NCBI RefSeq assembly: GCF_964213995.1
Contig: NC_135808.1
Location: 50,592,001-50,656,000, forward strand
Length of the DNA: 64,000 bases
Source of the DNA: Mustelus asterias
Lineage: Eukaryota
Direction of reading: 5' to 3'
Shown: piece after piece, positions 4,060 to 28,490 of the stretch
How the letters are laid out: each line of letters begins with the position of its first letter
Numbering within the stretch: position 1 is the stretch's first letter
Translations under genes and position numbers: made by a program
The notes under the pieces: generated by a model
The model's input: the letters and a program-made list of their open reading frames with translations, nothing else
What the model was told of the DNA's origin: nothing
Databases searched by the model: none

Positions 4060-7000
4060 CTGGCACATATAGGCAATTCTGTGGATGCGAAAGAGACTCC
4101 AGGATGGTATGTTGCCTCCCTGGTGCCAGGGTCCAGGATATCTTTGAATGGGCAGGGAGCATTCTGAAGGAGGAGGCTGAACAACCAGAGGTCGTGGTAC
4201 ATATTGTAACTGACGACATAGGTAGTGACATAGTCACTATGACTATGGGTCAAATCATCTTTCCCACATGTGATCAGATTCCTGATTCCAAGTTCATGAT
4301 CTTTTCCTGGGATCACGACCTCTTTCTGTTTCAGAACTTACAGTGAGCTTCCTGGTCTTTCCCATCCTGGCCTTATTTCCCAATCCACTGCCCGGATTTA
4401 GAACAAAGAACAAAAGAAAATTACAGCACAGGAACAGACTCTTCGGCCCTCCAAGCCTGCACCGACCATGCTGCCGTCTGAACTAAAACCCCCTCCCCTT
4501 CTTGGGACCATATCCCTCTATTCACATTCTATTCATGTATTTGTCAAGACCCTTAAAAGTCACTATCGTATCTGCTTCCACTCCATCCCCCAGTAGCGAT
4601 TTCCAGGCACCCACCACCCTCTGTTTAAAAAAGTTGCCTCGTACATCTCCTTTAAACCTTGCACCTTGCACCTTCAACCTATGCCCCCGAGTAATTGACA
4701 CTTCCACCCTGGGAAAAAGCTTCTGACTAATCATTCTGTCCATGCCCCTCACAATCTTGTAGACGTCTATCAGGTCGCCCTCAACCTCTGTCGTTCCAAT
4801 GAGAACAAACCACGGTTCTCCAATCCAAGCTCTAAGTTCATCTGCCTTACCCATTACACTTCTCGCATTGAAACAAATGCTCTTCAGTTCACCAGACCCT
4901 CTTTGATCAGCAACCCCACCTTGCCTCCTCTTTCACTGAGTCTTACTGGCCCGACTCTCTCATTCCCCTTCGGTCAATTCACCTTTGCTTTAGTAGCACC
5001 CACCTCCCCCCCCCCCCCCTCCCTCCCCCGCCCACCCCCCCTCCCGCGTGGCACTCGCAAACCTACCGGCCAGAATATTTACACCCCTCCAGTTTAGACG
5101 CAACCCGTCCTTCTTGTACTGGTCCCACCTGTCCTGGAAGAGATCCCAATGGTCCAGATATCTGAAACTCTCCCTCCTACACCAGCTGTTCAGCTGCGTG
5201 GAGCCTGAAGAGATAGGAGAGGCGCTAAATGAATATTTTTCATCAGTATTCACGCAGGAAAAAGACAATGTTGTCGAGGAGAATACTGAGATACAGGCTG
5301 TTGGACTGGACGGGATTGAGGTTAATAAGGAGGAGGTGTTAGCAATTCTGGAAAGTGTGAAAATAGATAAGTCCCCTGCGCCGGATGGGATTTATCCCAG
5401 GATTCTCTGGGAGGCTCGGGAGGAGATTGCAGAGCCTTTGGCTTTGATCTTTATGTCGTCATTGTCTACAGGAATAGTGCCAGAAGACTGGAGGATAGCA
5501 AATGTTTTCCCCTTGTTCAAGAAGGGGAGTAGAGACAAACCTGGTAATTATAGATCAGTGAGCCTTACTTCTGTTGTGGGCAAAGTTTTGGAAAGGATTA
5601 TAAGAGATAGGATTTATAATTATCTAGAAAGGAATAATTTGATTAGGGATAGTCAGCACGGTTTTGTGAAGGGTAGGTCGTGCCTCACAAACCTTGTTGA
5701 GTTCTTTGAGAAGGTGACCAAAGAGGTGGATGAGGGTAAAGCAGTTGATGTGGTGTATATGGATTTCAGTAAAGCATTTGATAAGGTTCCCCACGGTAAG
5801 CTATTGCAGAAGATACGGAGGCATGGGATTGAGGGTGATTTAGCGGTTTGGATCAGGAATTGGCTAGCTGTAAGAAGACGGAGGGTGGTGGTTGATGGAA
5901 AATGTTCATCCTGGAGTTCAGTTACTAGTGGTGTACCGCAAGGATCTGTTTTGGGGCCACTGCTGTTTGTCATTTTTATAAATGACCTGGATGAGGGATG
6001 GGTTAGTAAATTTGTGGACGACACTAAAGTTGGTGGAGTTGTGGACAGTGCGGAAGGTTGTTGCAGGTTACAGAGGGACATAGATAAGCTGCAGTGCTGT
6101 GCTGAGAGGTGGCAAATGGAGTTCAATGCGGAAAAGTGTGAGGTGATTCACTTTGAAAGGAGTAACAGGATTACAGAGTACTGGGCTAATGGTAAGATAC
6201 TTGGTAGTGTGGATGAACAGAGAGATCTGGGTGTCCATGTGCATAGATCCCTGAAAGTTGGCACGCAGGTTGATAGGGTTGTTAAGAAGGCGTACGGAGT
6301 GTTAGCTTTTATTGGTAGAGGGATTGAGTTTCAGAGCCAGGAGGTCATGTTGCAGTTGTACAAAACTCTAGTGCGGCCGCACTTGGAGTATTGCGTACAG
6401 TTCTGGTCACCGCATTATAGGAAGGATGTGGAAGCATTGGAAAGGATGCAGAGGAGATTTACGAGGATGTTGCCTGGTATGGTGGGAAGGTCTTATGAGG
6501 AAAGGCTGAAGGACTAGAGGTTGTTCTCGTTAGAGAGAAGAAGGTTAAGAGGTGACTTAATAGAGGCATACAAGATGATCAGAGGATTAGATAGGGTGGA
6601 TAGTGAGAGCCTTTTTCCTCGGATGGTGATGGCTAGCATGAGGGGACATAGCTTTAAATTGAGGGGTGATAGATATAGGACAGATGTCAGAGGTAGGTTC
6701 TTTACTCAGAGAGTAGTAAGGGCATGGAATGCCCTGCCTGCAGCAGTAGTGGACTTGCCAACATTAAGGGCATTTAAATGGTCATTGGATAAACATATGG
6801 ATGATATTGGAATAGTGTAGGTCAGATGGGCTTTAGATTGGTTTCATTGGTCGGCGCAACATCGAGGGCCGAAGGGCCTGTACTGCGCTGTAATGTTCTA
6901 TGTTCTATGTTCTACGTGTTGAGCTGTACTATCTTCCTATTTCTAGCTTCACTGGCACATGGCACAGGGAGTAATCCTGAGATTACAACCCTCGGAACCC

Positions 7001-7650: not shown

Positions 7651-8179
7651 TTTGACCGACATTTCTATCACCAATTAAATTATTGAAGAAAATTTATTAA
7701 ACTCTGACCTTCACTTCTCACATGAGGTTGGTCTTCATATCACTTACTTTCCCAGGATACTCTCTGGATTTCTCCCTGCAGAATAAGAGTTACGAAGCAA
7801 GAAGAAAGAAAACAAAACAAAAAGGGAAAACAGCATCTCCTCCCACCCTGCACTGAATTACCGCACTGTTCCAAATGGCCAAGTTTCAATCCCACTCTGG
7901 CTGCCTCAGTCACGCTGTCTCCCATTTCAAGTGCGCAAAGCTCTGATTTCCGGACCTTCCCTTTTTAATTCATTTTTACAGGATGTGGGGATCGCTGGCT
8001 TGGCCAACATTTATTACCCATCCCTATTTGCCCGTGAGCTGCCTTCTTGAACCGCTGCAGTCCATGAGTTGTAGGTACATCCACAATGCTGTTAGGGAGG
8101 GAGTTTGAGGATTTTGACCCAGTGACAGTGAAGAAACGGCGATATATTTCCAAGTCAGGATGGTGAATGAGTTGGTGGG

Positions 8180-8507
8180 TGTGGTGAACCATCTTTGGTT
8201 CCCACTAGATAGTACTGAGCCAGGGTCTGGCCAGTACTACAAGTATGTATATATGTTGCTGTTGGGGTTAGGGATGGGTTGTTCTACTTGTTGCTGTTGG
8301 GGTTAGGGTTGGGCTGTTACACCTTGTATTATAGTTATTGTGGTACATCCCAGTCGGGCTCCGCCTCCTGGGAGAGGTATAAAGGTCTCTGCTCTGTCTG
8401 GGACCCCTCAGTCTGGGATCGTGTATATAATTAGTAGCTGCCTTGTTACAGCAAATAAAAGCCTTTATTTCCTGAGCATCAAGCCTCGTGTGTGTTAACG
8501 CGCATCA
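8180..8507 (+). repeat. Gypsy 5' LTR
   Basis: Direct repeat of 13014-13341, with TATATAA at 8424-8430 and AATAAA at 8454-8459. Confidence 0.96.
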
Positions 8508-8555
8508 ATTTTATTTGCTGTAAATAAACTCTCGTCGAAGAAAAAAAAAGAGAGT

Positions 8556-11500
8556 ATGGAGCAGATACTGAAGCCTGAACGCCTTACACTAGATCCACGT
8601 GCGGTGGGCGCCTCTAACACCTTCGACCACTGTTTGAAATGTTTTGAGGACTACCTGGCAGCCTCCGCAGCGGTCACCACAGATGATGACAGACTCCGGG
8701 TCCTCCATGCGAGGGTAAGCGACACCGTCTACCTCGCGATCCGTGCGGCCACCGACTACACAAAGGCCCTCGAGCTTCTTAAGAAGCATTATATTAAACC
8801 GTCCAACGAAATACACGCTCATTACCTCTTCGCCACTCGACGACGGTAGTCTGGCGAAACGATGGAGGAATACGCGAACGAGCTCCTACAGCTAGCCAGG
8901 GTCTGTAACTGCAAAGCAGTGTCGGCAGAGCAGAATATGAACGACCTCGCTCGAGATGTGTTTGTGGCGGGAGTCGGATCATCTTACATCCGACTCAAAC
9001 TACTGGAGAAAGGTAACCTTGACCTTACCCAGGCAATCGAGCTAGCGGAGATGCTGGAGACGGCCTCCAAAAGCCTAGTACTGTATCCTGAAGACCACGT
9101 GGAGACAACGTGGCAGGAGCAGTCGCCAATCCCTCCTCGTCCCTCGGGTTCGAAATGCTGCGTAATGGCGTGCTCACACTCGGGCCAGACGACGGCAGCA
9201 GCTCCGGGCGGCCCGCGGTGTTACTTCTGTGGGGGAGCGAAGCATACTCGGCAACGGTGTCCCGCTAAAGTTGTGTTGTGCTCCGCCTGCGGTAAGAAGG
9301 GGCACTATTCGAAAGCGTGCCGATCTAAATCTGCTTCTCGGAACAGCAGTGCGGCCTGCGATTCCTCAGAGCCCGGTTCTTCGTCGTCGACATCGTCGAG
9401 GGTTTCGTCCACGTGCGAGGCCAGGACGACGCCATTACAGTCGACGGAGTCGGAGATGTGTGACCACCAGGGGTCGCTGAGTTTGGCGCCATCACCCACG
9501 TGTGACCTATGGGAGCGGCCATGTTGGTCGGCACCGACCGCGAACGACCAGCAGGGGTCATCCTCGTCGATTTCAGCTGCCTGCAGTGGCGCTCATGAAC
9601 CAACGGTGGCGTTGATCATCCTGGACCAGGCCAAGCCTCATAGACTTGACAAATCTATGATGGACATTCAGGTAAACGACCACTTGATTTATTGTCTGTT
9701 TGACAGCGGGAGCACTGAGAGTTTTATCCACCCAGACGCTGTGAAGCGGTGTGGACTCCGGATTCAACCTGTCAAACAGACAATTTCTATGGCATCAAGG
9801 TCCCGGTCTGTCACCGTGCTAGGGAGTTGCGTGGTAACTTTAACGGTGCAAGGCACAGTTTACGAGCGTTTCAAGCTCCTGGTGTTGCCGCACCTTTGCG
9901 CGCCAATACTTCTCGGACTAAACTTCATGGTCCACCTGAGGAGTGTAACCCTACAGTACGGTGGGTCACTCCCTTCGCTTTCAGTGGGAGAACAGCAGCC
10001 TCCAAAGTGCCCTGTAGCCTCTCGACGCTGAAGATTACCACACCCTCCCTGTTCCAGAATCTTGTGCCAGGCTGCAAGCCCATTGCGACTAAGAGTAGGC
10101 GTTACAGCGCTGAGGATCGGATCTTCATTCGATCTGAAGTTCAGCGGCTCCTCACGGAAAGGATCATACAACCTAGCGCTAGTCCGTGGAGAGCGCAGGT
10201 CGTGGTGGTCAAGAGTGGGAACAAACCCCGGATGGTCATTGACTATAGTCAGACCATTAATAGATACACGCAGCTGGATGCGTATCCCCTCCCGCGCATA
10301 TCTGATATGGTCAATCAGATTGCGCAGTACCGGGTGTTCTCCACCATAGACCTCAAGTCTGCCTGCCACCAACTCCCCATTCGCCCAGAGGACCGACAAT
10401 ACACGGCTTTTGAGGCGGATGGTCGCTTGTATCACTTTCTCAGGGTTCCCATTGGTGTCACCAATGGGGTCTCGGTCTTCCAGCGTGCTATGGACCGAAT
10501 GGTGGACCAGAACGGGCTGCGGGCTACCTTCCCGTACCTGGATAACGTCACCATCTGCGGCCATGACCAGCAGGACCACGGCACAAATCTCCTGAATTTC
10601 CTATGCACTGCATCTCGCCTGAATCTGACCTACAACAGGGAGAAGTGTGTGTTTCGTACGCGCCGTTTAGCCATCCTCGGATACGTGGTGGAAAACGGGG
10701 TCATTGGCCCTGATCCAGACCGTATGCGCCCCCTCTCTGAACTTCCCCTGCCCACTAGTGCAAAAGCACTGAGAAGTTGCTTAGGCTTCTTCTCTTATTA
10801 TGCACAGTGAGTTCCCAATTACGCGGACATAGCCCGTCCGCTCATCAAGTCCACTTCTTTTCCCCTAACACCAGAGGCCCGATTGGCCTTTGATAAATTA
10901 AAAGCCGACATCGCGAAAGCTACGATGCACGCTGTTGATGAGTCCATCCCCTTTCAGGTGGAGAGCAATGCATCTGATTTCGCCCTGGCCGCCACACTTA
11001 ACCAGGCGGGCAGGCCCGTCGCCTTTTTTTCCCGCACCCTCCAAGGCCCCGAAATTCGGCACTCCGCGGTGGAAAAGGAGGCCCAGGCCATTGTGGAGGC
11101 CGTTAGGCACTGGCGCCATTACTTGGCGGGAAAACGGTTCACCCTGATCACGGACCAGCGGTCCGTGGCGTTCATGTTTAATAACACGCTGAGGGGCAAG
11201 ATCAGGAACGACAAGATCTTGCGGTGGAGAATTGAACTCTCCACCTATATCTATGACATCATGTATCGTCCAGGGAAACTCAATGAGCCCTTAAGAACAT
11301 AAGAACATAAGAAATAGGAGCAGGAGTAGGCCATCTAGCCCCTCGAGCCTGCCCCGCCATTCAATAAGATCATGGCTGATCTGACGTGGATTAGTACCAC
11401 TTACCCGCCTGATCCCCATAACCCTTAATTCCCTTACCGATCAGGAATCCATCCATCCGCGCTTTAAACATATTCAGCGAGGTAGCCTCCACCACCTCAG

Positions 11501-12949
11501 TGGGCAGAGAATTCCAGAGATTCTCCACCCTCTGGGAGAAGAAGTTCCTCCTCAACTCTGTCTTAAACCGACCCCCCTTTATTTTGAGGCTGTGTCCTCT
11601 AGTTTTAACTTCCTTACTAAGTGGAAAGAATCTCTCCGCCTCCACCCTATCCAGCCCCCGCATTATCTTATAATGATGTGTATATAATTAGTAGCTGCCT
11701 TGTTACAGCCCTTGGATGCCCTCTCACGTGGAACATGCGCCAGTATACAGGAGGACCGTTTGCAGGCTCTCCATAATGACCTATGCCATCCTGGGGTCAC
11801 TCGGCTCTACCACTTTATAAAAGGCCGCAATCTGCCCTACTCGGTGGAGGACATCAGGTCCGTAACAAGAAGCTGTCGGGTTTGCGCGGAATGCAAACCG
11901 CACTTTTACCGACCTGACCGGGCACAATTAGTCAAGGCCACTCGTCCCTTCGAGAGACTGAGTGTCGATTTTAAGGGCCCTCAACAGATCGAAATGTGTA
12001 CTTCCTCAACATCATTGATGAGTACTCGAGGTTCCCTTTTGTTGTTCCCTGCTCTGATACATCCGCTGCCACGGTTATCAAGGCATTCCGTGATCTTTTT
12101 ACCCTGTTCGGGTACCCCAGCTACATTCACAGCGACAGGGGCTCGTCGTTCATGAGCGATGACTTGAGGCAATACCTGCTCTCATACGGGATTGCCTCTA
12201 GTAGAACCACGAGCTACAACCCTAGGGGTAACGGACAGGTGGAACGGGAGAATGCTACAGTCTGGAAGGCTGTCTTACTGGCGTTGAAGTCAAAAAGCCT
12301 TCCAGTCTCCCGTTGGCAAGAGGTGCTCCCTGATGCGCTCCATTCCATACGCTCACTCCTGTGTACGGCAACCAATGCTACTCCCCATGAGAGGATGTTT
12401 TCATTCCCTCGGAAGTCTTCCTCTGGGACCTCATTACCGTCTTGGTTGACGTACTCAGGACCTGTCCTCCTGCGGCGACATGTAAGGGCCCGCAAGTCCG
12501 ACCCTTTGGTCGAACAGGTCCATCTCCTCCACGCCAACCCTCAGTATGCCTATGTAGCATACCCTGACGGGCGAGAGGACACGGTCTCGATCCGAGACCT
12601 GGCGCCAGCAGGGGACGTGGAAACCCCTGTCGCTCCCATACCCCCTGTTACAACCCCCATAACTCTTGTTTCCCCACCGGACACGGCGCGGGCAGCATCG
12701 GGACCATTACTTAACCCTTTTACTCCCGTGTACAGCTTGCCTGAGTCCAGAGGACGGTCGCCACTTCAGGGCGTGTCGGAACTCCATGGATTACCATCAA
12801 CTCAGGGTCAACCGGCCCGTGAGTCTGTGGAGGAACAGTTGGACGTCGCCTTGAGGAGAACGCCACTGCAAGTGCCTACTCCGGTGTCATCGCCGGTATT
12901 GAGGAGGTCGCAACAACGGTGCGGTCCCCCTGACCGTCTGAACTTATAG
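8556..12949 (+). pseudogene. Gypsy gag-pol pseudogene
   Basis: Motifs: two CCHC-like knuckles, protease LFDSGS, RT YLDN (YxDD variant), RNase H (NASDF...EKEAQAIV...TDQ) and integrase HHCC plus HSDRGS...NGQVER. Lesions: stops at 8847 and 10808, frameshifts near 10000 and 11980, and a CR1 insertion. Confidence 0.93.
11293..11677 (-). mobile_element. 5'-truncated CR1 inserted in Gypsy pol
   Basis: CR1 ORF2 C-terminus (TRGHSLK...FFSQRV..WNSLP) with a (TTCTTATG)n tail. TSD AGCCCTT at 11286-11292 and 11707-11713; removing the insert restores NEPLDALSR. Confidence 0.93.
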
Positions 12950-13013
12950 ACTGATGACAAATTATTCTGTTTTTTTGTACCCCGCCGGCCTTTGTCTTCA
13001 AAGGAGGGGTGAA

Positions 13014-13341
13014 TGTGGTGAACCATCATTGGTTCCCACTAGATAGTACTGAGCCAGGGTCTGGCCAGTACTACGAGTATGTATATATGTTGCTGTTGGG
13101 GTTAGGGATGGGTTGTTCTACTTGTTGCTGTAGGGGTTAGGGTTGGGCTGTTACACCTTGCATTATAGTTATTGTGGTACATCCCAGTCGGGCTCCGCCT
13201 CCTGGGAGAGGTATAAAGGTCTCTGCTCTGTCTGGGACCCCTCAGTCTGGGATCGTGTATATAATTAGTAGCTGCCTTGTTACAGCAAATAAAAGCCTTT
13301 ATTTCCTGAGCATCAAGCCTCGTGTGTGATAACGCGCATCA
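13014..13341 (+). repeat. Gypsy 3' LTR
   Basis: Direct repeat of 8180-8507, followed by the TSD. Confidence 0.96.
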
Positions 13342-13751
13342 GTGGGGAATCTCCAGGTGATGGTGTCCCAGGTGTCTGCTGCCCTTGTCCTTCTAGGTGG
13401 TAGTGCTTGTGTGTTTGGAAGGTGCTGTTGAAGGAGACTTGGTGAGTTCCTGCAGTGTATCTTGTAGATGGTACACACGGCTGTCACTGTTCATTGGTGG
13501 TGGAGGGTTTGTGGAAGGGGTAACAATCAAGCAGGCTGCTTTGTCCTGATGGTGTCTAGTTTCTTGAATGTTGTTGGAGCTGCATTCATCCAGGCAAGTG
13601 GAGAGTATTCCATCACACTTGTGTCTTGTAGATGGTGGACAGGCCTTGGGGGTCAGGAGGTGAGCGTCTCACTGCAGGATTCCTAGTCTCTGACCTGTTC
13701 TTGTAGCCACGGTTTTCCTATGGCTCACCCAGTTCAGTATCTGGTCAATGA

Positions 13752-14427
13752 TGAAGTCGGGAATGGGTTAATGAACTTCAATACTCGAAGTGTCACAGTG
13801 ACCTCTGTGATATTTAGAGCTTGTGTGAGAAATACTGTAGAACTCATGTTTACGTTAGGGCTTCCATGCTCATGTTTCCAGAACAGATAAGAGCACAGCT
13901 GTTGTATGTATTTCTGTTCAAGAATGTGGCTAATCCGCCATTTTGTATTCTTTAATTATGTATTGCTGTGTAACAATGGACGCCTATATCTCTGCCTTTT
14001 GTGACGTATTATGATACCTTCATATATATTCATCATAACCTGTACCGATATACATTATACAAGTACCTACGAACGTATATAAATTGTTGTATGCCAATTA
14101 ACTTGTTTGTGCGAAGACTGTAACTTTGTACATTAGTAAGATACCCCACCTGTGCTCACAGAGAACAACAACACTCACGGCCTTGGGATAACCGTGAAGA
14201 AAACACCAAGGCAGCAAGGTTCACACAGGAAGATGTGCAACCGCCTGGGAACCTGTGAGCCTGGGAAACTGCGGACTTGCAAGGTGGGGCATAAATGTAT
14301 GTGTTTAGCCTGTATTTGCTGAGACATCTGAGGCCATGTTAGGCATCGGACGGTCTCCCACAATTGTGCAAATAAACCAATGTATTTTGACCTACGAATA
14401 GACTCAGAGGTATCTTTACCTGCGACG
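13752..14427 (+). repeat. ERV 5' LTR
   Basis: Starts TGAAG..GGGAATGGGTT, has AATAAA at 14371-14376 and ends 2 nt before the PBS. Both ends are homologous to the solo LTR at 50656-51607. Confidence 0.85.
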
Positions 14428-14429
14428 AA

Positions 14430-14447
14430 TGGTGCCGAAACCCGGGA
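14430..14447 (+). promoter_or_regulatory. Primer binding site, tRNA-Phe
   Basis: TGGTGCCGAAACCCGGGA is the 18-nt complement of the 3' end of vertebrate tRNA-Phe(GAA). Confidence 0.92.
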
Positions 14448-14897
14448 CTCTTTACGGGACCAGTCGAATGGCCACGAATGGGAGACCGGAATAGTTACTG
14501 AACTTGATGAAGTGGGTCAAAATACATTGGGTGACCATCTGTGATGAGAGAGTGTCTGAACTGATGAAAGACGTCTGAACTGAGCACATACGGACAAGGA
14601 GGCAATTGGCTCTGACACCCTGCCGTAAACTGACTGTTAAGAGCAGGAATCTCCCACACTGATGTTCGGATTTGAAATGGGTGTCAGGGTTGCCTGAGGT
14701 GTGATGTTCAGACGTGAGTGATGAGTGATAGATAGAGACTGTCTGAGTGGTCCCGGAGTGGAAGGAAAAGCCTTCATGTGAAAGCCAGCTGAATAAAAAT
14801 ATTGTGTAAGTGGTGGTACGGAGGGATCTGATCACCCCTGACAGGTATCACCGAACTCAGATAAGAGAAACCTGGGAGGGAGAGAGCGAGAAAGGAG

Positions 14898-16519
14898 ATG
14901 AGAAGACTCCAAGGTGGTGAGTATGACCTTATCAATGATATGGCGGGACAAGGACAGTGGGGCCCGGGGTCCCTGATACCTGAATATATAATTAAGAGGG
15001 ACAAACTCATTAAACAGATGATAAAAGAGGGATCGGATTTAGACCACCCGCTAGACCAATAATGAAAGTGGTTGGAAAAAGAAAAGAAAGATAGAACTAA
15101 GAAAATTGGGGTTCTCTTAGTTCACCAATTGGCTGGATTAATTGGACAGGTCTCAGTCTCGAGTAAGAAATGGGCTGACGACAAAGCAAAAATTAAAATG
15201 TTGGAAACACGCGATAGCAAATTAGAGAAGCGGAACCAACTTTTAGAGGACCCTGCCGGGGGATTCTTGCTTCCCTATGGGCCGGCCGTACAACCCACGG
15301 CACCAGTGGGAGACCCTGATGAGGAAGAGGTCCATGATCTCACTCCCATAACTCGGACCGGGACGTTACAGCATCCCACTGCCCGATATAAACCCTTTAC
15401 CCCAGGTGAACGACAACAGATTTTTGGCACCCCTGGGAAGGCTCCAGCCCCGGAGTAACAATCGCAAATTTTGGGCAGAACTGGACACCCTTTGGGTTGG
15501 ACACCAGTTACATTTGCGGGATATACACCAGTTGGTACGGGCTGTTTGCCCGTGGGATAAGTGGAGACTAATGGGTGACGGTGGGGTCCAGGCTAATGTC
15601 GCTGACCAAGCTCGGTTGGATTACCGAGGCGGAAGGTGGACGTACGCGACAGAGACAACCGCCGAGATCGAGGCAATGATTGAGCCATTTACTCGGTTTA
15701 AGGCGGAAGTCCAATGAGTCTTGGGTAATGCACCAACCAATTGGTCCAGACTTACCAATATTAAACAACAAAGGGGTGAAGGAGCCTCCGAATTTGGGGA
15801 ACGACTCTGTAGAGTATACCAAGAACGTTCGGGAATACCCGAACAGATAGAGCCTTTTTCCAAGCATTTAAAGATGGGCTATCGCCAGCTCACCAGAAAA
15901 TCCTTAAAATGGGAGTTCTCAATACCCAGGCTTATGATAGAAACCCTACAGTGCAGAAGGAGGCCATTCGGCCCATCGAGTCTGCACCGACCACATTCCC
16001 ACCCAGGCCCTACCCCCACATATTTTACCCGCTAATCCCTCTAACTACACATCTCAGGGACAATTTTTAACCTGGCCAATCAACCTAACCCGCACATCTT
16101 TGGACTGTGGGAGGAAACCGGAGCACCCGGAGGAAACCCACGCAGACACGAGGAGAATGTGCAAACTCCACACAGACAGTGACCCGAGCCGGGAATCGAA
16201 CCCAGGACCCTGGAGCTGTGAATTAGTAGAATGGGCATCTGGAATTAGAGATGGACCAGATGAGAAACCATACCCACGAATAAAACAGGAAACAGTTAGT
16301 GCAAACAGTGGAGGGGCTAAACCCAAGGGTGCGTGCTATAATTGTGGGAAACCGGGTCACTTTGCCAGAGGCTGTAGAGCTCCAAAGGGGGGCAGTGGAA
16401 AAGCCCCTACCTGCCTGTTTTGTAATAAGGTTGGCCACACTGAGGCCACCTGTTGGAGCAAGCACGGCAGACCGAGTCAACTGCTTCGCCCTCCCCTCAT
16501 TGACGAGGGAGGGAATTGA
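14898..16519 (+). pseudogene. gag: ERV gag, disrupted
   Basis: MHR-like IKQQRGEGASEFGERL and two zinc knuckles (CYNCGKPGHFARGC, CLFCNKVGHTEATC). It carries stops, frameshifts and a SINE insertion, and the start codon is tentative. Confidence 0.85.
15938..16218 (-). mobile_element. HE1-type SINE inserted in ERV gag
   Basis: Same core and tail as 19844-20190. Confidence 0.9.
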
Positions 16520-19500
16520 CGGGAGGCAGCCCCCACAAGCCTGGGCACAAAAGAGGGTAGAATCTACGTGTCTGCACTAGTAGGGGGAAGGCAATGTGAA
16601 ATGCTGGTGGACACGGGAGCCTCCATATCTATCACTGATCTACCCTTGCCCACCACCAATAAAATGATCTATATAAGGGGTGTTAACGGACAGAAGACCC
16701 CTGCCTACTTAAGTGAAACCACCCTAGTAGAAATTAATAACCTGTATATATCTATGCGATTTTATGTGTGTAGAAATAATGAAGGAACTATTATGGGAAA
16801 TGACCTAATGAAGGAATACAAAGTCTGAATAGATTGTGGGAAAGGTGAATTGATTTGGCCCCGCCCCGATGGGAGAAAAGACAGGGTAGGAACATATGTA
16901 AACCATTTAGGGACCATCCATGCAGCATCTGTAACGGGACGCGACTGGCAGTTAGAAGGTACTGGATTTGGTGCCATCTGCGCCTCCGTCCCCGGCGTGT
17001 GGGCGGAAACGAAACTGGATACTGGATTCATCAAAATTGACCCTATAATAGTGGTAGGGCCAGAACACAAACCACATCGGCAAAACCCGATTAAGCCCAA
17101 AGCCAAAAAGGCAGTGGAGGAAATTGCGACGGGATTGGTAAAGAGAGGGATCCTACGGGAAACCACTCGTACCACCAACTCCCCCACCTGGCCCGGTGTC
17201 TAAACCGGACGGGAGCTATAGATTAACCATTGATTATACAGCTTTAAATAAAGTGACCCCCAAGCAACACCCTATCGTGGCCTCGCCCCTCCACCATTTT
17301 AAACGGGTTGTCACCATCCCATGGAATCTTCACGGGATTGGATATCGCCAACGGTTTGTCGTCCATTCCCCGGACCCTAATTCGCAAGATAAATTTGCAT
17401 TTACCGTGGGCGATAAGCAGTGCACATGGACTCGGCTCCCGCAAGGCTTCCATAACAGCCCGGCTATATTTCACCGGGTAATGAGTAAGATATTAGAACA
17501 GGTGGGAGTCCCAAAAGGGAGCACAATTCTGCAGTATGTGGATGATATCTTAATAGCCTCCGAAACTAGAGCAGAACATCAGACGGTGCTATACTCAGTC
17601 TTGAAACACTTAGAAGAACAGGGACTAAAGGCGAGCCCCAGGAAAGCCCAAATAGGGAAAGAGCAGGTGTTATATTTGGGACACCTGATATCTCAGGGGA
17701 CCAAAGAAATGCCACTGGACAGGAAAACGGCCATTCAGCAAATGCCAAGACCAGTAACCGTCCGAGGGGTCAGGAAGGTTTTGGGACTGTTTAACTACAG
17801 TTGCAACTTTATACTGGAATTTGCCAGGCTAGCCGAACCAATACAAAGGCTAGTAAAAGGGGGGAAACCCGCGCTTGGGGTTATAGAGTGGGGATCAGAA
17901 CAGGAAGAGGCATCTCGTAAACTAAAAGCAGAACTAATGACAGCTCCGGGACTTGGACTGCCCAACGCTAATAAAGATTTTCACATCTATTGTAATAATG
18001 AGGGGGGGGTTTATTCGGCAGTAGTTACACAGGTCCATGGGGACAAGCAGCGGCCAGTGGGTTATTATTCCACAGCGGAGGGCCCCGTAGTAGCCGGGTT
18101 GCCCAGATGTATAGCCGCACTGGATTGAGCAGCATGGGCAGTAAGGGTCAGTGAGCCCATCATAATGACGGGGAATATTGTTTCACACACCAAACATACC
18201 TTAGTGGAAGTGCTGAACACAGGAAAATTGCGGTCTGTCTCAAATGTGAGAAGGGCAAAGTGGGAGGCAGTGCTTCTCCCACCCACTAAGTCCATCACCA
18301 TTGTACGAGACATGGGAACGAACCCCGCAGAAGGAATGTTAGGTGAAGGGGACCCACACAACTGTGGGGACGTAGATGAGGAGGTAGACGAAGGTAGAAT
18401 AAAAGATGTGCCCCTGGAGGCACCAGATATGGTCCTATTTGTGGATGGATCAGGGAAATATGTCGATGGGTCACCACGAACAGGATGGGCGGTAGTGAAT
18501 GCGGATTTACAAATTGTTCAAGCAGGAAGAATAGAGGGAGGCATGTCAGCGCAAGTAGCGGAACTGGTAGCCTTGACTCAGGCTTTTACAGAGGCTGTGG
18601 GGAAAAGGGTCAACATTCACACCGATAGTAGATATGCGTTTGGAGTTATTCATGACTATATGACAGTTTGGGGGAGAAGGGGATTTATCACAATGGGAGG
18701 CACTCCAATTAAACATGGCCAGACAATAACAACCTTATTGGGAGCCAGCGAGCTCCCATTGGAAGCCGCAGTATTGAAGGTAAAAGCACACCACAAGGAA
18801 CCAGATAAGCAAAGTCCTGAGTGGTATATGTTTAAGGGAAACCAGGCAGCCGACAGAGCGGCACGAGCTGCCTTGGAAACAGGGGAAGTGCCGGCCTTGC
18901 CAGCTGCCTCGAGTAAAATCAAAACCCCGATAGACATCTCACAGCTCCATGCTGATACCCCTGAAGAAGAACGTGTGAGGGGAAAAACTCAAAAGGAGCT
19001 ACACCTGATGGAGGGTGGGGGGGGGGGGGGGGGGGGCGGGGGGGGGGGTGGGGTATGAAGATTAAATGATAAAGTGCGAGCCCCGGAATGTATCCAGCAT
19101 ACTCTGATGCGGTTACATCATGGGCTGTCACATGTGGGGAGGGATGCCACGGTGACCAGTGTGGGGAAGGAATGGTGGTGGAAAGGAATGGGACGGGACA
19201 TTGCCCGATATTGTCACCGGTGCATAACCTGTGCACGGTATAACCCTGGAAGACCCGTAAAAATCAAGATGGGGCAACAGCCTCGTCCTAAGGGTCCCTG
19301 GGAACACCTGCAAGTTGACTTTACAGGACCTCTCCCGCAGTCACACGGGAGAACCTGCTGCTTGGTAATTATTGACCAATTCACCAGATGGGTAGAAGCA
19401 TTCCCGATGAAAAATTGTACTGCCACTACAGTGGCCAGAATACTAGCTGAGGAAGTTATCCCAAGATGGGGGGTGCCTTTGCAAATAGACTCCGATCAAG

Positions 19501-20495
19501 GCACGCACTTTACGGGGAAGGTTGTAAAAACCACATGTCAACTGATGGGGATAAGACAGATATTTCACATACCCTACCACCCTCAAAGCTCGGGGATGGT
19601 GGAACGTATGAATAGGACACTTATGATCTCCTAGGCAAAGGCCATGCAGGAATCAGGAAAGAGATGGACAGAAGTATTACCCGCCATATTAACGGAACTC
19701 AGAGCCACCACAAATCAGACCACTGGGCTGATACCATATGAGCTAATGACCGGAAGGGCTATGCAACTGCCCGAGTCCATCATTACCGGAGGGACAGATG
19801 TAGGCCCATTACGGGACAAGATTAGACGATATGTGTTAGAATTAGGGCAGCACGGTAGCACAGTGGTTAGCACTGCTGCTTCACAGCTCTAGGGTCCCGG
19901 GTTCGATTCCCGGCTCGGGTCACTGTCTGTGTGGAGTTTGCACATTCTCCTCGTATCTGCGTGGGTTTCCTCCGGGTGCTCCGGTTTCCTCCCACAGTTC
20001 AAAGATGTGCGGGTTAGGTTGATTGGCCAGATTTTTTAAAAATTGCCCCTTAGAGTCCTGGGATGCGTAGGTTAGAGGGATTAGCGGGTAAAATATGTGG
20101 GGGTAGGGCCTGGGTGGGATTGTGCTCGGTGCAGACTCGATGGGCCGAATGGCCTCCTTCTGCACTGTAGGGTTTCTATGATTCTATGATAATTAAGCTC
20201 CCAATTAATAGATATGCGGAAAAAAGTACGGGGCAAACAAATAGCGGTAGATGAGTACAATGAACTAGAACAGACCCCGGAGATACCCCCGGCGGGCAGC
20301 AAGGTTACGGTAAAAACCTTACCCGAAAAACCTGGATTCGCCCCCGAAGGGAAAAGCCCCTATGAGGTTATCATTAGTGGAGACACCTGTGCCTGTATAG
20401 ATATGCAAGGCAGAGGCGTCTGGAAACACTGGACCCAGTTGAAAGAATACACTGGCACCAATCGGAAAACATGTAATGGACAACAAAACAGTTAA
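16520..20495 (+). pseudogene. pol: ERV pro-pol, disrupted
   Basis: LVDTGA protease; RT WTRLPQGFHNSP and LQYVDD; tether; RNase H FVDGS/SAQVAEL/TDSRY/KVKAH; integrase HHCC, VDFTG, DSDQG, PQSSGMVER. Several stops and frameshifts, a poly-G run at 19011-19053 and a SINE insertion. Confidence 0.93.
19844..20190 (+). mobile_element. Full-length HE1-type SINE inserted in ERV integrase
   Basis: GGGCAGCACGGTAGCACAGTGG A-box, GGTTCGATTCC B-box, CR1-type tail and TSD AATTA. Confidence 0.93.
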
Positions 20496-22702
20496 GAGGG
20501 GAGTAAAGGGTTAAACACCAGCAGGCTGAGAGTTTCTCTCTCTCTCTCTCTCTTGACAAGGGAAAGAGAGAGAGAGAGAGGGGTGAAAGTGTGCGATCGA
20601 GAGCCACATGCGGTGGAAGAGGGTATCGCAGATCAATGTTTAATAAACTATTCTCCCCAGTTGAAATTTTACAGGCGTGCATTACATTACAGCTGAAGAG
20701 TTGTAAGGAGAGTTAACCATTTAAGAGAAATAATTAATTATGTGCTCATCTTGAGCTTAAACCGGAGAGTCTGTGAGAAAGTGTAAACGTCTTAATAAGT
20801 AGAGATATTTAAAAAGTGACAAAAATAAATGGATTGTTTGGATCAGGCTTTTGTTATAAAATGTACTCTTGATAGAATTGACAATGAAAAGATAAATGGA
20901 AAGAATTATTCCTGCGTATTTGAAGTGATGATTAATCACTTGTTTATGTTCAGCTGAGTGAACTTACCCCTCCGGCTCTCTGCTGAAACGAGCAGAGAAC
21001 TAATCCATCCTTTCCGCCACAGGAAATTCATGTTATAAGACTTGGAGTAATCTTAAGATATAGAGTCAAAACTTAAGAGAGAAGGGAGTTACAGAAGGTA
21101 GAATGGGAGTGTGTGTGTGTAATGCTGGGAATCATTATACGGCCATAATGCATTCTAATTAAAATGTGTTACACGGATCAACCATGAAACTGTATTAAAT
21201 GCCAGACAGGCTAAAAGAGAGTGCCCGCCTATAATACCAAATTGGCAAATCCATATAATTGAGATAAGAAAATGCTGGGAAAGTGTTTGTTACAAACTGT
21301 TCGAAATTAAAGTGATAAGATTTCTTGAATTTACTTCTGTTTTGAGTTGAATTACAGTTTGGAAAACAGCAGAATAAAAGCGACTGTTAGTCAACGTTCA
21401 GTTTTCTTCAATGTTTTATTTTCATCCCAGTTTAAGATGTTAAGTCTGAATAAAGGTTGGAAGCTTCCATGTGTATCTGTGTGTTTAACAACGTGATTGC
21501 GTGAATGTTTTGTTGGTGTTCGCTTGAATGTTTTAATGTTGAGAAAGGAGTTAAACCTTGGAAGGACCATGTGCTCTTTCCTTGTCTTGAAGTTGAAATT
21601 ATAAGAGTGTAGTTGAGAAGTTAAAAGAAAGGCAATTTTGTGAAAACAAAGAAAAGCAGGAACAAAAGAATAAGATGAATATACTGTCTCTGAGTCAGTT
21701 TAAAGTGTATCAAATTAGTGAAATGAATCGTAGTTCTGATTACCCCAAGTTACAGCAGGAGATTAAACTCATTTGTTAATACAAATAAAGATGTTGTCCT
21801 TGAGTATTTTTAAACACCATGAATTGTTGGAACTTGTGTTACCAGTTAGTTATTTTTAAATAAAATGATAATAATATGAAATTTGTGATGTTCCGATAAC
21901 ATGCAACAAATTACATCATTTAAACCATCTCACATTGATGATAGTTCTGTAAAATTAGATACTGCCGTTGGAATTGCGTGTGCCATCTATTGTTCAAGGT
22001 TTTCCAGATGTAAAAACACTGCAAAGCTTAAAACCTAGCCAGCTAGGAATCAAACCAAAACATTTCTAATCAACTAACAATTGTTATTGTTATATGTATT
22101 GTGCTTGTTATTGTTCTAAAATGCAGGGATTCCGATCTGGAGCAGCTTAAAAATAAAAACGACTTAAATTAAGAGGGTTTTGATATACCCGAGAGAATCA
22201 AATCCTGGAGAGCCTTAACCAATTTTATATGTTGATATATATTGTGTATTGATACAACATAATTCTGTGGAAGAAAAGGCTATTTATTCCAAACATTTAA
22301 CCATAATTTGTCATAATTTGTAATAACTTGCACAACTAACATTAACATGACAGGAAGTGAAACCGGATGACTTGAGAGAGAGAGAGAGAGAAAGAGTTGG
22401 TGACTGGCCTTACAACCAGACTCAAAAATCTTGCAGCATTCGACTGGACACAACAGATAGCTCATTCGGTTATCTGTGTTTTTAAAGAGCTGTGTCTGGC
22501 TCAGTGACCACGTAACACTGTTGTTTACCTTATGAGACAATCTGTCTATAGAGGGATCATTTCTGCTCAAACAAATGATCATATTAGATATAATGTAAGA
22601 TACATCATACAAAGATCGGAGCTATATAGTATATGATTTTAAGTACACTAAGCTTTCTATGCAAGGGGGGTATGTAGTTAAATGTATAATGCACTGGCTT
22701 TT

Positions 22703-23140
22703 GTGGCCAAAGGTATTGCCCACCATACTAATGAGATTAAGGGTTTCCACAAACCGAACAACCGGATTAACCCCTTATGAGCTAATGACTGGACGGGCGA
22801 TGCAATTACTAGAAAGCATTATAACAGGTGGGACCGATGTAGGTCCACTAAAAGATAAAATCAGGAGATATGTTTTGGAACTAAGCACCCAACTAAAAGG
22901 GATGCGTAAATTGGTAAAAGACAATTAGGAGATAAGAGACACACAGAGAGAGAGCTTGAAATGCTCCCTGACATCCCAACAGCGGGACGTCCGAGTGAAA
23001 ACACTACCTGACAAATCAGGGTTTGTACTAAAATGGGATGGGCCGTATGAAGTTATAATTAGTGAAGATACCTGTGCCTGCATAGACATAAGGGGGAAAG
23101 GTCATTAAACTCAGTTGAAAGAATATGCTGAAACTAATTG
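22703..23140 (+). pseudogene. Second, diverged copy of the ERV integrase C-terminal region
   Basis: WPKVLPTILMRLRVSTNRTTGLTPYELMTGRAMQLLESIITGGTDVGPLKDKIRRYVLELS matches 19665-19843 (WTEVLPAILTELRATTNQTTGLIPYELMTGRAMQLPESIITGGTDVGPLRDKIRRYVLEL). Similarity continues through GPYEVIISEDTCACID. Confidence 0.9.
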
Positions 23141-23917
23141 GGAAATTATGTGATATCCTCCCATTGCAGGAATGTACAGACAATGACCAACCTCCAAGCA
23201 AGCTGAACGGGTGCGCGGTGTTTCGCGCGGGCGGTATAGCCTTTGGACCGTTGTATAACGGTCGCGCAGGTTATTAGTAAGTGATAAGATGCTTTTCATG
23301 CTACTTCTCACGACCCTGGCCCTGTTAGCTATAGTGGGAAAATATAGATGGAATTATGAGAATTTGGGGATTTGACACAGTGAACATCTCTGTGACGATG
23401 ACTCTGTCTATTGTATGAACACCTCTGTGTATATGTCTTATCTGTGTGCATCACAATTGAATTTGAGCAAGTGCTGGGTCTGTTCACACATTCCCACGCA
23501 CGGAGGAAAGGGAGGAATTCCTTTATTCCCTATCCCTTTATCAGCTCCAGATACACAATATCGGGACCTCTCAGGCCAGTTTTGACGTTATCAGTAAAAA
23601 CAGAACTGTTATACATTTTCTCAATCTGATTCTCCGCCTTACATTAGTTTAAAATTAATTTCATTTAATGTCCATATGTTAACATAAATTATTGCCAAAT
23701 ACCTCAGTCAACCACTTAGTACTTTCCAGCATGATGGTTTCTCATTCGTCCATTACAACAGGACATTACTCACTTCTTGACTAAAGCTATTTCCCTGTTG
23801 CCTGGATGCGGTAGATGCTACCGTAAGGATCAAAGTGGAGGTTCCTACCAGCTCACTGCCAAGCTGAATAGACATGTGTTGCTGTATCCAGGGTCATGTC
23901 TATTCAATGTATGTATT

Positions 23918-24240
23918 GGGCGGCACGGTAGCACAGTGGTTAGCACTGCTGCTTCACAGTTCCAGGGACCTGGGTGCGATTCCCGGCTTGGGTCACTGCC
24001 TGTGTGGAGTTTGCACATTCTCCTCGTGTCTGCGTGGTTTTCCTCCGGGTGCTCCGGTTTCCTCCCACAGTACAAAGATGTGTGGGTTAGGTTGATTGGC
24101 CATGCTAAAATTGCCCCTTAGAGTCCTCGGTAGGTTAGAGGGATTAGTGGGTGGATATGGGGGTAGGGCCTGGGTGGGATTGTGTTTGGTGCAGACCTGA
24201 TGGGCCGAATGGCCTCTTTCTCCACTGTAGGGTTTCTATG
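23918..24240 (+). mobile_element. Full-length HE1-type SINE
   Basis: Same structure as 19844-20190. Confidence 0.92.
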
Positions 24241-24645
24241 TCTGGGCCGTGAATTGATTGAAACATTATGTTGCACAATGTGTTCCCTCATCGGGATCTC
24301 CCAGATATGAGTTTGCAAACTAATGGGTTCCAGGCCTTTGGCTCGAAACATTTTACCTTTCCCACCATGCCTTTCAGTACCTTGCATTGGCCAAAGTGTA
24401 CAATCACAGTAGAATACTTGAAATACATTTAGAATATCAACTTCTATGTCTTAAAATCATAGTTGTTTTAATTCTCTTACTGTGCTCACATGTGGGTACG
24501 TTATCATTTAACTCCTTAATGTTCACTCTGCCAGTGCTTGTACTCTCTCTAAAAATGAAGAGAAATATAAAATAATCCCTTTCATCTCCCCATGGGGCTC
24601 GGTCTCAGATTGTTCTTGTGAAGCACGTTGTATTATATTGGCAGT

Positions 24646-25040
24646 TGTGTGTGTGGTGTGTGTGTGATGCCTCCCATGGTTGATGAGCTGGGAATTATGT
24701 GTGTGTGTGTGTGTTTTCGTGTGTGTGTGTGTGTTTTCGTGTGTGTGTGTGTTTTCGTGTGTGTGTGTGTTTTCGTGTGTGTGTGTTTTTGTGTGTGTGT
24801 GTTTTCGTGTGTGTGTGTTTTCGTGTGTGTGTGTTTTTGTGTGTGTGTGTTTTCGTGTGTGTGTGTTTTCGTGTGTGTGTGTTTTCGTGTGTGTGCGTGT
24901 GTTTTCGCGTGTGTGTGTGTGTGTGTGATGCTACCTGTTGTTGATGAGCTGGGAGTTGTGTGTGTTTGTGATGCCTCCTACGATCGATGAGCTAGGAATT
25001 GTGTGTGTGTGTGTGTGTGTGGTGCCTCCTGTGATTGATG
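24646..25040. repeat. Interrupted (GT)n microsatellite
   Basis: (GT)n runs punctuated by TTTTC and by GATGCCTCC..GATGAGCTGGGA spacers. Confidence 0.95.
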
Positions 25041-25699
25041 AGGCAAATGCTTTAGGGGGTAAGGGGGGGTAAGATGGCACGGGGGTGGGTGAGGGTTTGG
25101 ATGCGTTGTGGCTTGAGGTGAGTTTGAGATTGGGGGATATTCTGAAGGGCTGGTCAGGTCACGGGGTGGTTGGTGTTTTTTGGTGCTGCCAATCGAGTCA
25201 GGGCGGTATTCAGGAAGGTGAGATATCAGAAGGACATATTTTACACAGAGGGTGGTGGGGGCCTGGAATGCGCTGCCAGGCAAGGTGGTGGAGGCGGACA
25301 CACTGGGAACATTTAAGACTTATCTAGATAGCCACATGAACGGAGTGTAAATGGAGGGATACCAAAGAATGGTCTAGTTTGGACCAGGGAGCGGCACAGG
25401 CTTGGAGGGCCGAAGGGCCTGTTCCTGTGCTGTATTGTTCTTTGTTCTTTGTGAGGGGGTCAGACAGGTGCCCTTTGGAGTCAGGGGACATGTTTCAGTT
25501 TTACACTGACCCCGGTGTTGGAACTGCTCTGAATCGTTCTAACTTTTCCTGGGTAACTATTCTGGGCAGGGAGTCAGAAACATCTGAATTCTCCAGATTT
25601 CAGTCCGAGATTCAGAGGGTTCCAGACTCAGGGGAATTCCCCATATAGATCCGGGATACGACCATCCGGAGATTGGAAGTTCTGGGTCAGGAGCTCAGA

Positions 25700-28490
25700 C
25701 CAACCAAAGATGAGATAAAGAGGTGGACAATGAGAGTTTGAAAGGATCAAAGTGAGTTGGAGAGGTGGAGGGGGTTATGGAGGGAATTCCAGAGCTTGGA
25801 ACCCAGGCAGCTGAAGGCTTGGCCACCAATGGTGGAGACATTGGGCCTGATTTTACCATTTTCATTCCAAGTGCCGAATCTGGGCGCAATTCAGATCCGA
25901 CTGAGAAATCTGCTTTCAGGCACCCCCCATACGCACCCAGCTTGAAAAAAAAAACCGCGGGTCTCATTCGCGGTGTGGGCGGGGCTTAGCGCGCGCGAAA
26001 CGATCGGAGCTCTGAACTGCGCATGCGCAGTTGGAAACAAATGTGAAAAAGTGTGCCCAAGTCAGATCGCTCCCGGACCGCAGAAAGCGGAGAAAGTGGC
26101 TCGGGAGCGAAAAGCGGGAGCGTTGGCCCCCACAGACATCACTGTCCCCCTTATCAACCCCCCAACCCCCCGCTACCCAGACCGATCGCGACTCCTGCCC
26201 CCTTCTCCACCCCCCCTCCCCGGCCCCCACCGATCACCCGCAGAGTGGCAGCGGACTCCCCTGTCCCCCTCCCCCGCCCCACCAGTGATCCATCTGCGCC
26301 CCCCCTGACCAGTGCCCCCCCCGACCAGTGAGCGATCGGGCCTCCCACCCCCCCCTTCACCAGAGATACATCTTACCCGCCTCCCTCCTCCGCCCCCCAC
26401 CTCAGAGAAGGATCGGGCCTCACTCCCCCCACCCAGAGGAACATCTGACCCGCATCCTCCTCCCTCCCCACCAGACAACGATCAGCCCTCCCCGCCCTCC
26501 CCACCACCGGACAATGATCGGGCCTCCCTCCCCCCCCCTCCCCATCTCCCCACCAGAGATACATCTGACCCGCCTCCTCCTCCTTCCCCCCCCCAAACCA
26601 GACAACGATCGGGCCTCCCTCCCCCCCACCCTGCCCCCCACTCCCCACCAGAGATACATCTGACCCATGTCCTCCTCCTGCCCCCCCCCTCCCCACCCCC
26701 CACCCCCAACCAGACAACGATCTGGCCTCACTCCCCTCCCCCCACCCCCCCAACCAGAGAATGTTCTGACCTGCCTCCCTCCTCCCCCCCACCACCGATC
26801 TGAGTCAGGGAGCCGCTGGAAGCTCTGAACTCGCTCTTCAGCAGCTGGAGCGCCCGATTCAGACTTTTATTCAGCATGTCCGTTTCGGCGCGATTCCGGA
26901 TCAGCGAACGTGGCGGTAAAGGGGGAAATGCTGATAAAGGTGGGCGGGCAGTTCATTAATTCAATTGAAATACATGCAAATACATTTAAATCACCGTTGC
27001 GCCCATTTTGGGTGCGAAGCGGATCGCCGCCATTCCCGCGTTTCGGTAAAGTAGCCATCTGCGCGGGCGCGGGCGCAGATCGCGTTAATGGCCTCACACC
27101 CGACTTTACCACGTTCCCCACCCAAAAACGGGCGCGACGCAATGGTAAAATAGGGCCCATTATGATCAGGAATGTACAAGAGGCCAGGATTAGAGGAACA
27201 CAGATATCTCGGAGGGTTGTGGGGCTAGAGGAGATTCCAGAGAGAGGGAGGGGGTGAGGACATGGAGGGATTTGAAAACAAGGATGAGAACTATAAAATC
27301 AAGACATTGCTTGATCAGGAGCCAGTGTAGGCCAGTGAGCACAGGGGGTGATAGGGGAACGGGACTTGGTGTGAGTTCAGACTGGGACAGCAGAGTTTGG
27401 GATGAGCTGATGTGTGCGGAGGGTGGAATGTGGGAGAGCAGCAAGGAGTGTATTGGGATAGTCACGTCTAGAGGAACAAAGGCATGGATGAAGCTTTCAG
27501 CAGCAGATGGACTGAGAACAGCAGGTAGCTCTCATGGACAAGATGAGCTCAGAGAAGTCACGAGTGGGGGATCGGAGAGAAACTAGAGAAAGATGTGAGT
27601 TCAGGGCTCGGGCGGGGGGGGGAGAATTAGAGGATGTTTGTCCAGATGGTTAGAGGAAGGAAGGGACGTGGCAGAGGCAGCTGATTGGATTGTCTCAATC
27701 TTAGTCACAAAGACCTCGGTGAGATCCTCACACTTGTTGCTGGAGGTGAGGGGGGAGGGGACAGGGGAGAGGGGTTTAAGAAGTTGGTCTGCAGTTGGGT
27801 AAAGAAGCCGGAGCTTATCTTCTCATTCCAGGATGATCCTGGAATAGTCAGCAGTTTTAGCAGATGAGAGTAGGAGCCGGAAGTGTTTGAAGTGCTCCAG
27901 CCAGATCAGCCAGTGGATGGATAAACCAGTTGTCCACCAGATCCTTTCAAGTCTGTGTCCCTGGGATGAAGTGAGTGGAGATGAGGCCGGAGCAGGGGGA
28001 ACGGCCGGGGGGAGAGGGAATCATGGTTTTATTGGGGATTAGGATATCAAAGGTGGGGGTGAGGGGGAGCCAATCAGTCGCTGCAGAAATGTTGTGGTGA
28101 TCGGAGGGCCAGAGACGAGATAGTTGGGATTTGGAAAGTGCGGTTGTAAGTGAATGGACACAGCTGGAAGAGTTGGGTGAGGGGAAACAAAGGGGTTGCC
28201 TCCCCACAGAGCTGGTCTGAGAATCAACTGGCTTCTGGTAAAATGAAATTTACGATAGATGGGAATTGGAAAGTGCGGTTGTCAGTGGATTGGGGAATAG
28301 GTTTTTGCAGGGATGGATACAGAAGGGGGTAGGGTTGGAGGTGTGGATGGAGGATGTGGCTGGGGAGTGATACAAGGAAGTGATCAGAGATGGTCTGATC
28401 TCTGATTGAAACTATGGGAGCAGTGAGACCACGTGAGATTGTTAAGGTCAAGGGGGAGGTGGTGAATATGGGGTGGAGAATTGTGATTGT
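25700..28490 (-). mobile_element. Old L2-like LINE remnants hosting the MITE
   Basis: PVL..LHWL....DF..LILVFKSLH C-terminal motif at 27250-27350 and the APE motif ISDHFLV at about 28380. Confidence 0.6.
25843..27158. mobile_element. Non-autonomous PIF/Harbinger-type DNA transposon (MITE-like)
   Basis: 18-bp TIRs GGGCCTGATTTTACCATT / AATGGTAAAATAGGGCCC match at 16/18, with a 3-bp TSD ATT on both sides. The interior is CpG-rich, contains C-rich tandem repeats and has no transposase. Confidence 0.85.

Follow-up and report, generated by a model that had tools for sequence, protein, structure and literature searches.

The stretch analysed here, hereafter the window, comprises 64 kb of Mustelus asterias DNA and carries a degraded LTR retrotransposon whose features are collected in Table 1. 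The element shows the gag-protease-RT-RNase H-integrase content, TG...CA LTRs, polypurine tract (PPT) and short target site duplication (TSD) of the Ty3/Gypsy group, and in Pfam its domains follow the order protease, RT, RNase H and integrase. The gag-pol region of this copy is disrupted by stops, frameshifts and one insertion. In the secondary insertion listed in Table 1, the LINE-like part is an antisense tail of AAGAACAT repeats, joined to 32 nt (11678-11709) that are identical to LTR positions 8421-8452 and were probably captured from a nearby LTR via AGC microhomology. A perfect 16-nt inverted repeat (9691-9706 / 9769-9784) lies within the protease coding region, and another one (14377-14392 / 14515-14530, arms ~125 nt apart) lies outside the element. 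The window also includes a second, broken retrovirus-like element at 15941-19634, with a zinc knuckle, RT, a tether plus a separate RNase H, and integrase, for which no LTR pair was found across 13301-26000; six copies of a tRNA-like SINE (19838-20130, 23911-24203, 34070-34362, 42964-43256, 53725-53887 and 55788-56080); and LINE RT frames at 4997-6517 and 60163-63186.

Table 1. Features of the Gypsy element and of its putative priming region; positions are those of the window.
Feature	Position	Strand	Remarks
Gypsy LTR retrotransposon, degraded copy	8180-13341	+	5-bp TSD
5' TSD, GTGGG	8175-8179		partner copy at 13342-13346
5' LTR, TG...CA, 328 nt	8180-8507	+	98% alike to 3' LTR
TATA box, TATAAA	8378-8383	+	GC-rich box at ~8355-8368; in 76/79 family and 20/20 sister copies
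Initiator-like (Inr) TCAGTCT	8408-8414	+	predicted start at A8410; in 78/79 family copies
TATATAA	8424-8430	+	probably not the promoter; in 60/79 family and 0/20 sister copies
Putative self-primer segment in R, TTACAGCAAATAAAA, then GCC	8446-8460	+	3' end is the predicted priming point
Poly(A) signal, AATAAA	8454-8459	+	within the primer segment
Putative poly(A) addition site, GAGC/A, end of R	8477-8478	+	from locus L360, n=1
Spacer A, one base	8508	+	between LTR and primer site
Primer-binding site, TTTTATTTGCTGTAA	8509-8523	+	reverse complement of 8446-8460; without TGG
gag-pol	8556-12949	+	two CCHC knuckles, protease, RT, RNase H, integrase; without chromodomain
Secondary insertion between two AGCCCTT	11293-11706		LINE-like tail in antisense and LTR-derived 32 nt
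PPT, AAAGGAGGGGTGAA	13000-13013	+	
3' LTR	13014-13341	+	

Among 1,398 homologues at E 1e-40 or better, the closest named proteins are those of catsharks and rays (best 76-82%), followed by cnidarians and a nematode. The family is abundant, given that a single exact 19-nt LTR/primer-site junction is present 1,235 times in the 3.68-Gb host genome. In sister subfamilies (L031-L050) many copies have open frames of ~1,330-1,400 aa and LTR pairs 98-100% alike, which points to very recent activity of the clade in the host genome. The insertion site of the window copy was found three times within 300 kb of one contig (L001-L003 on C8), and thus the region is segmentally duplicated. As the preliminary description of this DNA had proposed, the integrase has no recognizable chromodomain: Pfam gave no Chromo or SH3_Tf2-1 match in the integrase ORF of the window or, at E 0.05, in three long relatives, and no chromodomain is annotated across 120 homologues.

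The 5' LTR ends in CATCA (8503-8507), and the primer site that follows the spacer starts with ATTT instead of the TGG of a tRNA-type site. It had been suggested that an exact 15-nt complement of the LTR replaces the tRNA site, and the sequence bears this out; the motifs on which the suggestion was based (TATATAA at 8424-8430, TTACAGCAAATAAAA, AATAAA at 8454-8459 and the LTR end) are all in place, and the complement is exact over 15 nt with no extension possible on either side. In the whole 64-kb window there are only two other non-microsatellite exact inverted repeats of at least 15 nt with arms within 150 nt. The predicted fold of 8446-8545 has z = -3.68, with 1 of 200 shuffles equally good; in the fold of 8410-8560 the helix is retained and the overall value is not unusual (z = -1.11). 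Among the best-matching 30 copies the site is perfect in 20 and carries one mismatch in nine with a common flank and another mismatch in the remaining one; nine copies on small contigs (L013-L020, L022), which share flank and primer-site mismatch, are a single insertion amplified along with its surroundings. Two Gypsy elements of another clade in the same genome (L318, L321) have TGG primer sites without self-complement. An inverted duplication private to the window copy was excluded, since thousands of copies, as well as distant relatives, have the pairing.

Whether LTR and primer site covary had been raised as a test of the proposal, and across families they do. Of the 1,235 junctions, the first 90 were taken and comprised 86 ordinary, two palindromic and two other ones, and pairing was counted in the 79 ordinary junctions with a whole 5' LTR, for which the search pattern fixes only the first three T's. 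The unbroken match was 15 nt in 46 copies, 14 in 5 and 13 in 16, and in the other 12 it did not exceed 11 nt, so that 67 of the 79 copies pair over 13-15 nt. The same length of pairing, with different letters, was observed in 20 of 20 sister copies, which were chosen via RT similarity to a coral protein and whose RTs are 93-95% identical. More distant relatives (46-64% RT identity) were taken from metagenomes, where 47 of 80 loci had sufficient upstream DNA; a complement of at least 11 nt just past a CA was present in 24 of these 47, and in none of 41 pol-internal control windows. The 23 loci without pairing were counted regardless of whether each keeps a 5' LTR. The spacer base is A in 22 of the 24 metagenome matches, and it is trimmed off at integrated ends of the U5 type.

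Within the family, positions 8452 and 8517 are C-G in 50 copies and T-A in 28, both mixed combinations being absent (0 and 0). Position 8452 is in conflict with nearly all other sites and yet coupled to 8517, and three changes are required to explain the distribution of T-A on a 70-copy gag tree, two of them forced by strong branches, i.e. the coupled change had at least two independent origins. The pair 8449/8520 is split 65/2/1/11, with unpaired intermediates in 3 of 79 copies. Judged from these sequences, covariation is decisive evidence against a chance complement. A set of 29 lineage representatives had been picked by their complement, so that pairing in 29 of 29 is partly built in and was not used as evidence of pairing; this set includes 26 distinct primer-site 12-mers, 11 of them inside the host genome; when segments and sites of different lineages are combined, only 6 of the 812 pairings fit. 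The triplet after the segment is GCC in 22 of the 29, ACC in 4, ACT in 2 and GCA in 1.

A probable record of the copying process itself was found in insertions where U5-A runs on into the LTR in inverted orientation. A genome-wide search with this pattern, in which all matches were read individually, gave 69 read-through junctions; the control gave none. Fifty of the 69 consist of LTR, A and inverted LTR (8460 back to the U3 start) within an exact 5-bp TSD, and five more have one TSD mismatch, for a total of 55 TSD-flanked LTR palindromes; four junctions (three loci) extend through the PPT into integrase, and the remaining 10 are of other kinds. All inverted arms start at 8460; the element's copying machinery joins strands exactly at the LTR/primer-site pairing. 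The 55 palindromes occupy 54 flank pairs, a few being possibly haplotype duplicates, and the 54 sites have 49 distinct 5-base left flanks, so an assembly artefact was rejected as the source of these TSD-flanked structures. Sister families contain 18 such junctions, and the 12 that were read comprise four TSD palindromes, three PPT read-throughs and five others. Four complex products (L276, L291, L292, L299) have outer TSDs. An origin of the arms from two different parents was dropped, as they share one haplotype; their divergence in U3 and R (1.1-1.7%) is like that of ordinary LTR pairs, and for this reason they cannot separate a 5' from a 3' primer. The first strand-transfer point is not mappable from recombinants, because the family is almost tree-like. 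We regard the palindromes as likely fossils of primer copying.

Other insertions start with the reverse complement of U5. In three TSD-flanked loci of this type (L167/168, L178 and L265) the fold-back lies at 8453, 8476 and ~8460, and U5-A is recopied, followed by R and U3; in a fourth fold-back locus (L176) the turn lies farther upstream. In such fold-backs, the sequence past the A should be a copy of the molecule to which the minus strand was joined at its start. At L148 (938-1527) the left end consists of U3(1-50) and an inverted PBS-U5-R-U3, with the fold-back at a 22-nt U3 palindrome, ahead of a normal LTR and gag. Another insertion (L212) ends after LTR-A and 16 copied bases. In pattern searches, no junction was seen to begin exactly at 8461, and none at 8410, a result that is uninformative. 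The end of R was located from one natural insertion (L360, 1227-2398, TSD CACTG), in which U3-R gives way to ten A's at the position that corresponds to 8477-8478, 17-18 nt downstream of AATAAA, and the poly(A)10 is joined to the 3' end of integrase, the PPT and a full LTR. This locus is an integrase-type insertion of a copied polyadenylated RNA end, and since it carries U3-R-poly(A), at least one 3' R remained uncut.

The preliminary description placed the start of transcription near 8446 (8446-8455), driven by TATATAA, and this part of it is not supported. TATATAA is kept in none of the 20 sister copies, and the TATA at about 8378, which the description itself had named as the rival of that start, is the conserved one in these comparisons. 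It lies 32 nt from the Inr in the window copy and every sister copy (21 of 21); of 75 family copies with both motifs scored, 67 have this spacing. Transcription likely starts at 8410, which would place the segment at +37 to +51. The segment ends 50-51 nt past the Inr A, and its start keeps a constant distance of 35-37 nt to CAGTCT. Because TATATAA is not conserved and the pair formed by the TATA at 8378 and the Inr at 8410 is, the primer is probably internal to R.

We consider some form of self-priming highly probable. The group likely self-primes because relatives keep the pairing despite letter changes and inverted insertions join there; the self-priming core of the preliminary description is upheld as likely by a pairing that is clade-wide and covarying and by read-through junctions that join exactly at it. 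For the exact route, with an internal segment of the 5' R as the primer, we see about an even chance. In this route transcription would start at A8410, driven by the conserved TATA and Inr, and R bases +37 to +51 are predicted to pair with the primer site 48 nt downstream, in a duplex of about -16 kcal/mol. By analogy with Tf1, which primes with its initial 11 bases after cleavage by RNase H (PMC7175516, PMC4600332), the RNA would be cut after ...TAAA(A), ahead of (A/G)CC, probably by the RNase H of the element. The new 3' end would prime the minus strand across A-U5, and this strand would transfer via the ~17 nt of R from the cut up to the poly(A) site (~8477). The insertions suggest that the plus strand copies the primer, and changes in the LTR could thereby be carried over to the primer site. 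At ~2% of the junctions the strand would continue into R and U3 and integrate as an LTR palindrome. Templated inheritance is not automatic, and selection alone could give the covariation, because neither Ty1 nor Ty3 derives its primer site from the primer (PMC5371799). Against this route stands the length of the primer: a capped primer of 51 nt has no natural stop for the plus strand, yet the match is only 12-18 nt. In addition, 8410 is not the end of any of the 69 read-through arms, two short arms stopping 16 and 22 nt downstream of it, and no more than four events, the fold-back and poly(A) loci, point to the 5' copy of R. The unpaired states at 8449/8520, the 12 family copies whose match does not exceed 11 nt and the 23 metagenome loci without pairing weigh on the same side.

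The short and fairly constant match (12-18 nt) is accounted for if the mechanism is identical to that of Tf1, i.e. if the 5' end of the RNA lies at ~8446, or is trimmed to it, and the primer consists of the first 13-16 bases of the transcript. Such a primer would give templated inheritance of the primer site without an extra stop signal, it agrees with the known Tf1 geometry of the first 11 bases (PMC7175516) and with the constant position of the segment start relative to CAGTCT, and the insertion that ends after LTR-A and 16 copied bases (L212) would be its product. We nevertheless hold it to be rather unlikely, given that the sole conserved promoter-like layout is the one formed by the TATA at 8378 and the Inr at 8410, and that the TATATAA required for a later start is missing in all the sister copies. 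Somewhat less probable still is a primer supplied by the 3' R, in which the genomic RNA would circularise on the primer site, be cut after TAAA(A) and lose its poly(A) tail, while the 36 upstream nucleotides of R would serve the first-strand transfer. The 36 nt that separate the segment from the predicted start would thereby have a role, and this primer fits the arms that run unbroken from 8460 into U3, as if the attached primer were the 3' end of an RNA, as well as the read-through into PPT and integrase in three family and three sister loci, with outer TSDs in four of the structures checked. However, a 5' primer followed by transfer to the 3' R yields identical products, a mere 48 nt separate the 5' copy from the primer site, the polyadenylated 3' R of L360 is uncut, and three fold-back points fall within 8453-8476, with none in 8410-8452. 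The internal 5' R segment is the route that we favour.

The duplex might also have nothing to do with priming and only hide the promoter-proximal poly(A) signal, or form some other RNA structure, with another molecule as the primer. In the four copies that were folded the 5' signal is predicted to be fully paired, in the 3' LTR of three sister copies it is mostly free, and AATAAA or ATTAAA persists while the remaining segment changes; all shark families seen have it inside the duplex. On the other side, only 8 of 13 distant metagenome lineages, in our own grouping, carry the signal in the duplex, for which reason we regard masking as secondary. The other five, which form three groups on the RT tree, lack a canonical signal there, and three of them have a separate one 7-28 nt downstream. 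Moreover, the duplex always begins one base past the LTR end, where a primer must sit, and no alternative primer site is visible. The idea that the duplex masks the 5' signal agrees with the predicted 5' pairing and with the eight lineages and does not fit the five; its further claim, that masking is confined to the 5' LTR, sits badly with the window family, in which a local hairpin is predicted to pair the 3' signal too. Masking is possible in the modelled folds but not general, and may be a side benefit in some lineages outside the conserved core of the mechanism; as the only function of the duplex it is very improbable. Least probable is priming by a host tRNA half or another small RNA, with the LTR match as a by-product. 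Half-tRNA priming is known in copia-type elements (PMC6317226), but the 11 distinct primer-site 12-mers of a single genome each fit their own LTR and lack TGG, and with so many variants no single host tRNA could presumably serve all.

A more far-reaching reading is as follows: in a large animal Gypsy clade outside the chromoviruses, an internal cut in R, possibly at the 3' and not the 5' end of the genomic RNA, would prime reverse transcription, the primer would be copied into the primer site so that the pair evolves as one unit, and dozens of palindromes per genome would have been integrated as a record of the mechanism. As a whole this is tentative, and falls a little short of an even chance.

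Membership of the Mag lineage would call for two CCHC knuckles in Gag and an RT that groups with it; two CCHC motifs are visible in Gag of the window element. The RT of the element scores 120 bits against Ty3, with about one third identity by eye, and 348-476 bits against members of its own clade. The RT tree was built without any Tf1 or sushi RT and without a named Mag or CsRN1 reference, and three usable RTs from SH3_Tf2-1 loci formed its outgroup; no chromovirus-type RT was obtained from 20 SH3_Tf2-1 loci and 8 Chromo loci of the host genome. Scans of viral contigs revealed no relative, and an atlas search returned only generic RT clusters. Two candidate names for the clade were discarded: Selgy denotes a Selaginella clade, and no paper was found under the name Selfy. 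Repbase entries reportedly mention self-primed Gypsy families. In the CsRN1 clade the 5' motif of the LTR is TGTGGYG (PMC3601003, Table 3); LTRs of the window family start with TGTGGTG, and those of relatives with TGTTGTG or TGATGTG. In the accessible portions of the open literature, i.e. outside subscription journals, supplements and Repbase texts, there was no report of self-priming in a chromodomain-less animal Gypsy clade, nor of such palindromic insertions, and the portions seen of PMC6238403, PMC12801592 and PMC2774666 contain nothing on such priming.

Self-priming has so far been established by experiment in yeast Tf1; self-primers are described for Tf1/sushi and predicted for chromovirus kin such as Tcn1 and for one plant copia lineage, TAR (PMC6317226). 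If our reading is true, a very abundant chromodomain-less clade of sharks, rays and marine animals would make tRNA-free priming common and repeatedly reached; its members would not rely on tRNA from the host, and the target site through which tRNA fragments act in silencing would be missing from them. The TSD-flanked palindromes provide a test of self-priming that needs only a genome and is applicable to any LTR family. The coordinates predicted here (cut after 8460, poly(A) at ~8477, start at 8410) make the question of the primer end directly testable.

The Mustelus family shares with Tf1 and Tf2 of Schizosaccharomyces pombe, Tj1 of S. japonicus and the Tf1/sushi and Tcn1 chromoviruses a primer site that is complementary to the element's own 5' LTR (PMC7175516, PMC4600332, PMC6317226), as well as the Ty3/Gypsy domain order. 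In contrast to the Tf1/sushi chromoviruses, it has no chromodomain or SH3_Tf2-1 match. With respect to Tf1, the match is 12-18 nt instead of 11, and the predicted position of the segment is 36 nt into the transcript instead of base 1; the segment ends in a conserved TAAA/(A/G)CC and often overlaps the poly(A) signal. The TAR lineage of plant Ty1/copia elements (Houba, Osr-1) is another case outside the chromoviruses in which LTR-PBS complementarity predicts self-priming (PMC6317226), although it belongs to another superfamily and other hosts, and the portion of that source available gives no covariation or intermediates. As for the copying of the primer, plus-strand strong-stop DNA of Ty3 and Ty1 includes ~12 nt of primer and can accumulate as a dead-end product (PMC5371799); by analogy, a dead-end molecule of this type would yield the palindromes seen here. 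In Ty3 and Ty1, unlike in the Mustelus family, the primer is a tRNA, and its copy has no LTR complement and is not inherited. Finally, an RNA helix over AAUAAA near the 5' end is also known from the HIV-1 polyA hairpin and from poly(A) occlusion in other retroviruses (PMC2645353, PMC3694450); there, a local hairpin and U1 snRNP exert the control, whereas here the signal is predicted to pair with the primer site, and not clade-wide.
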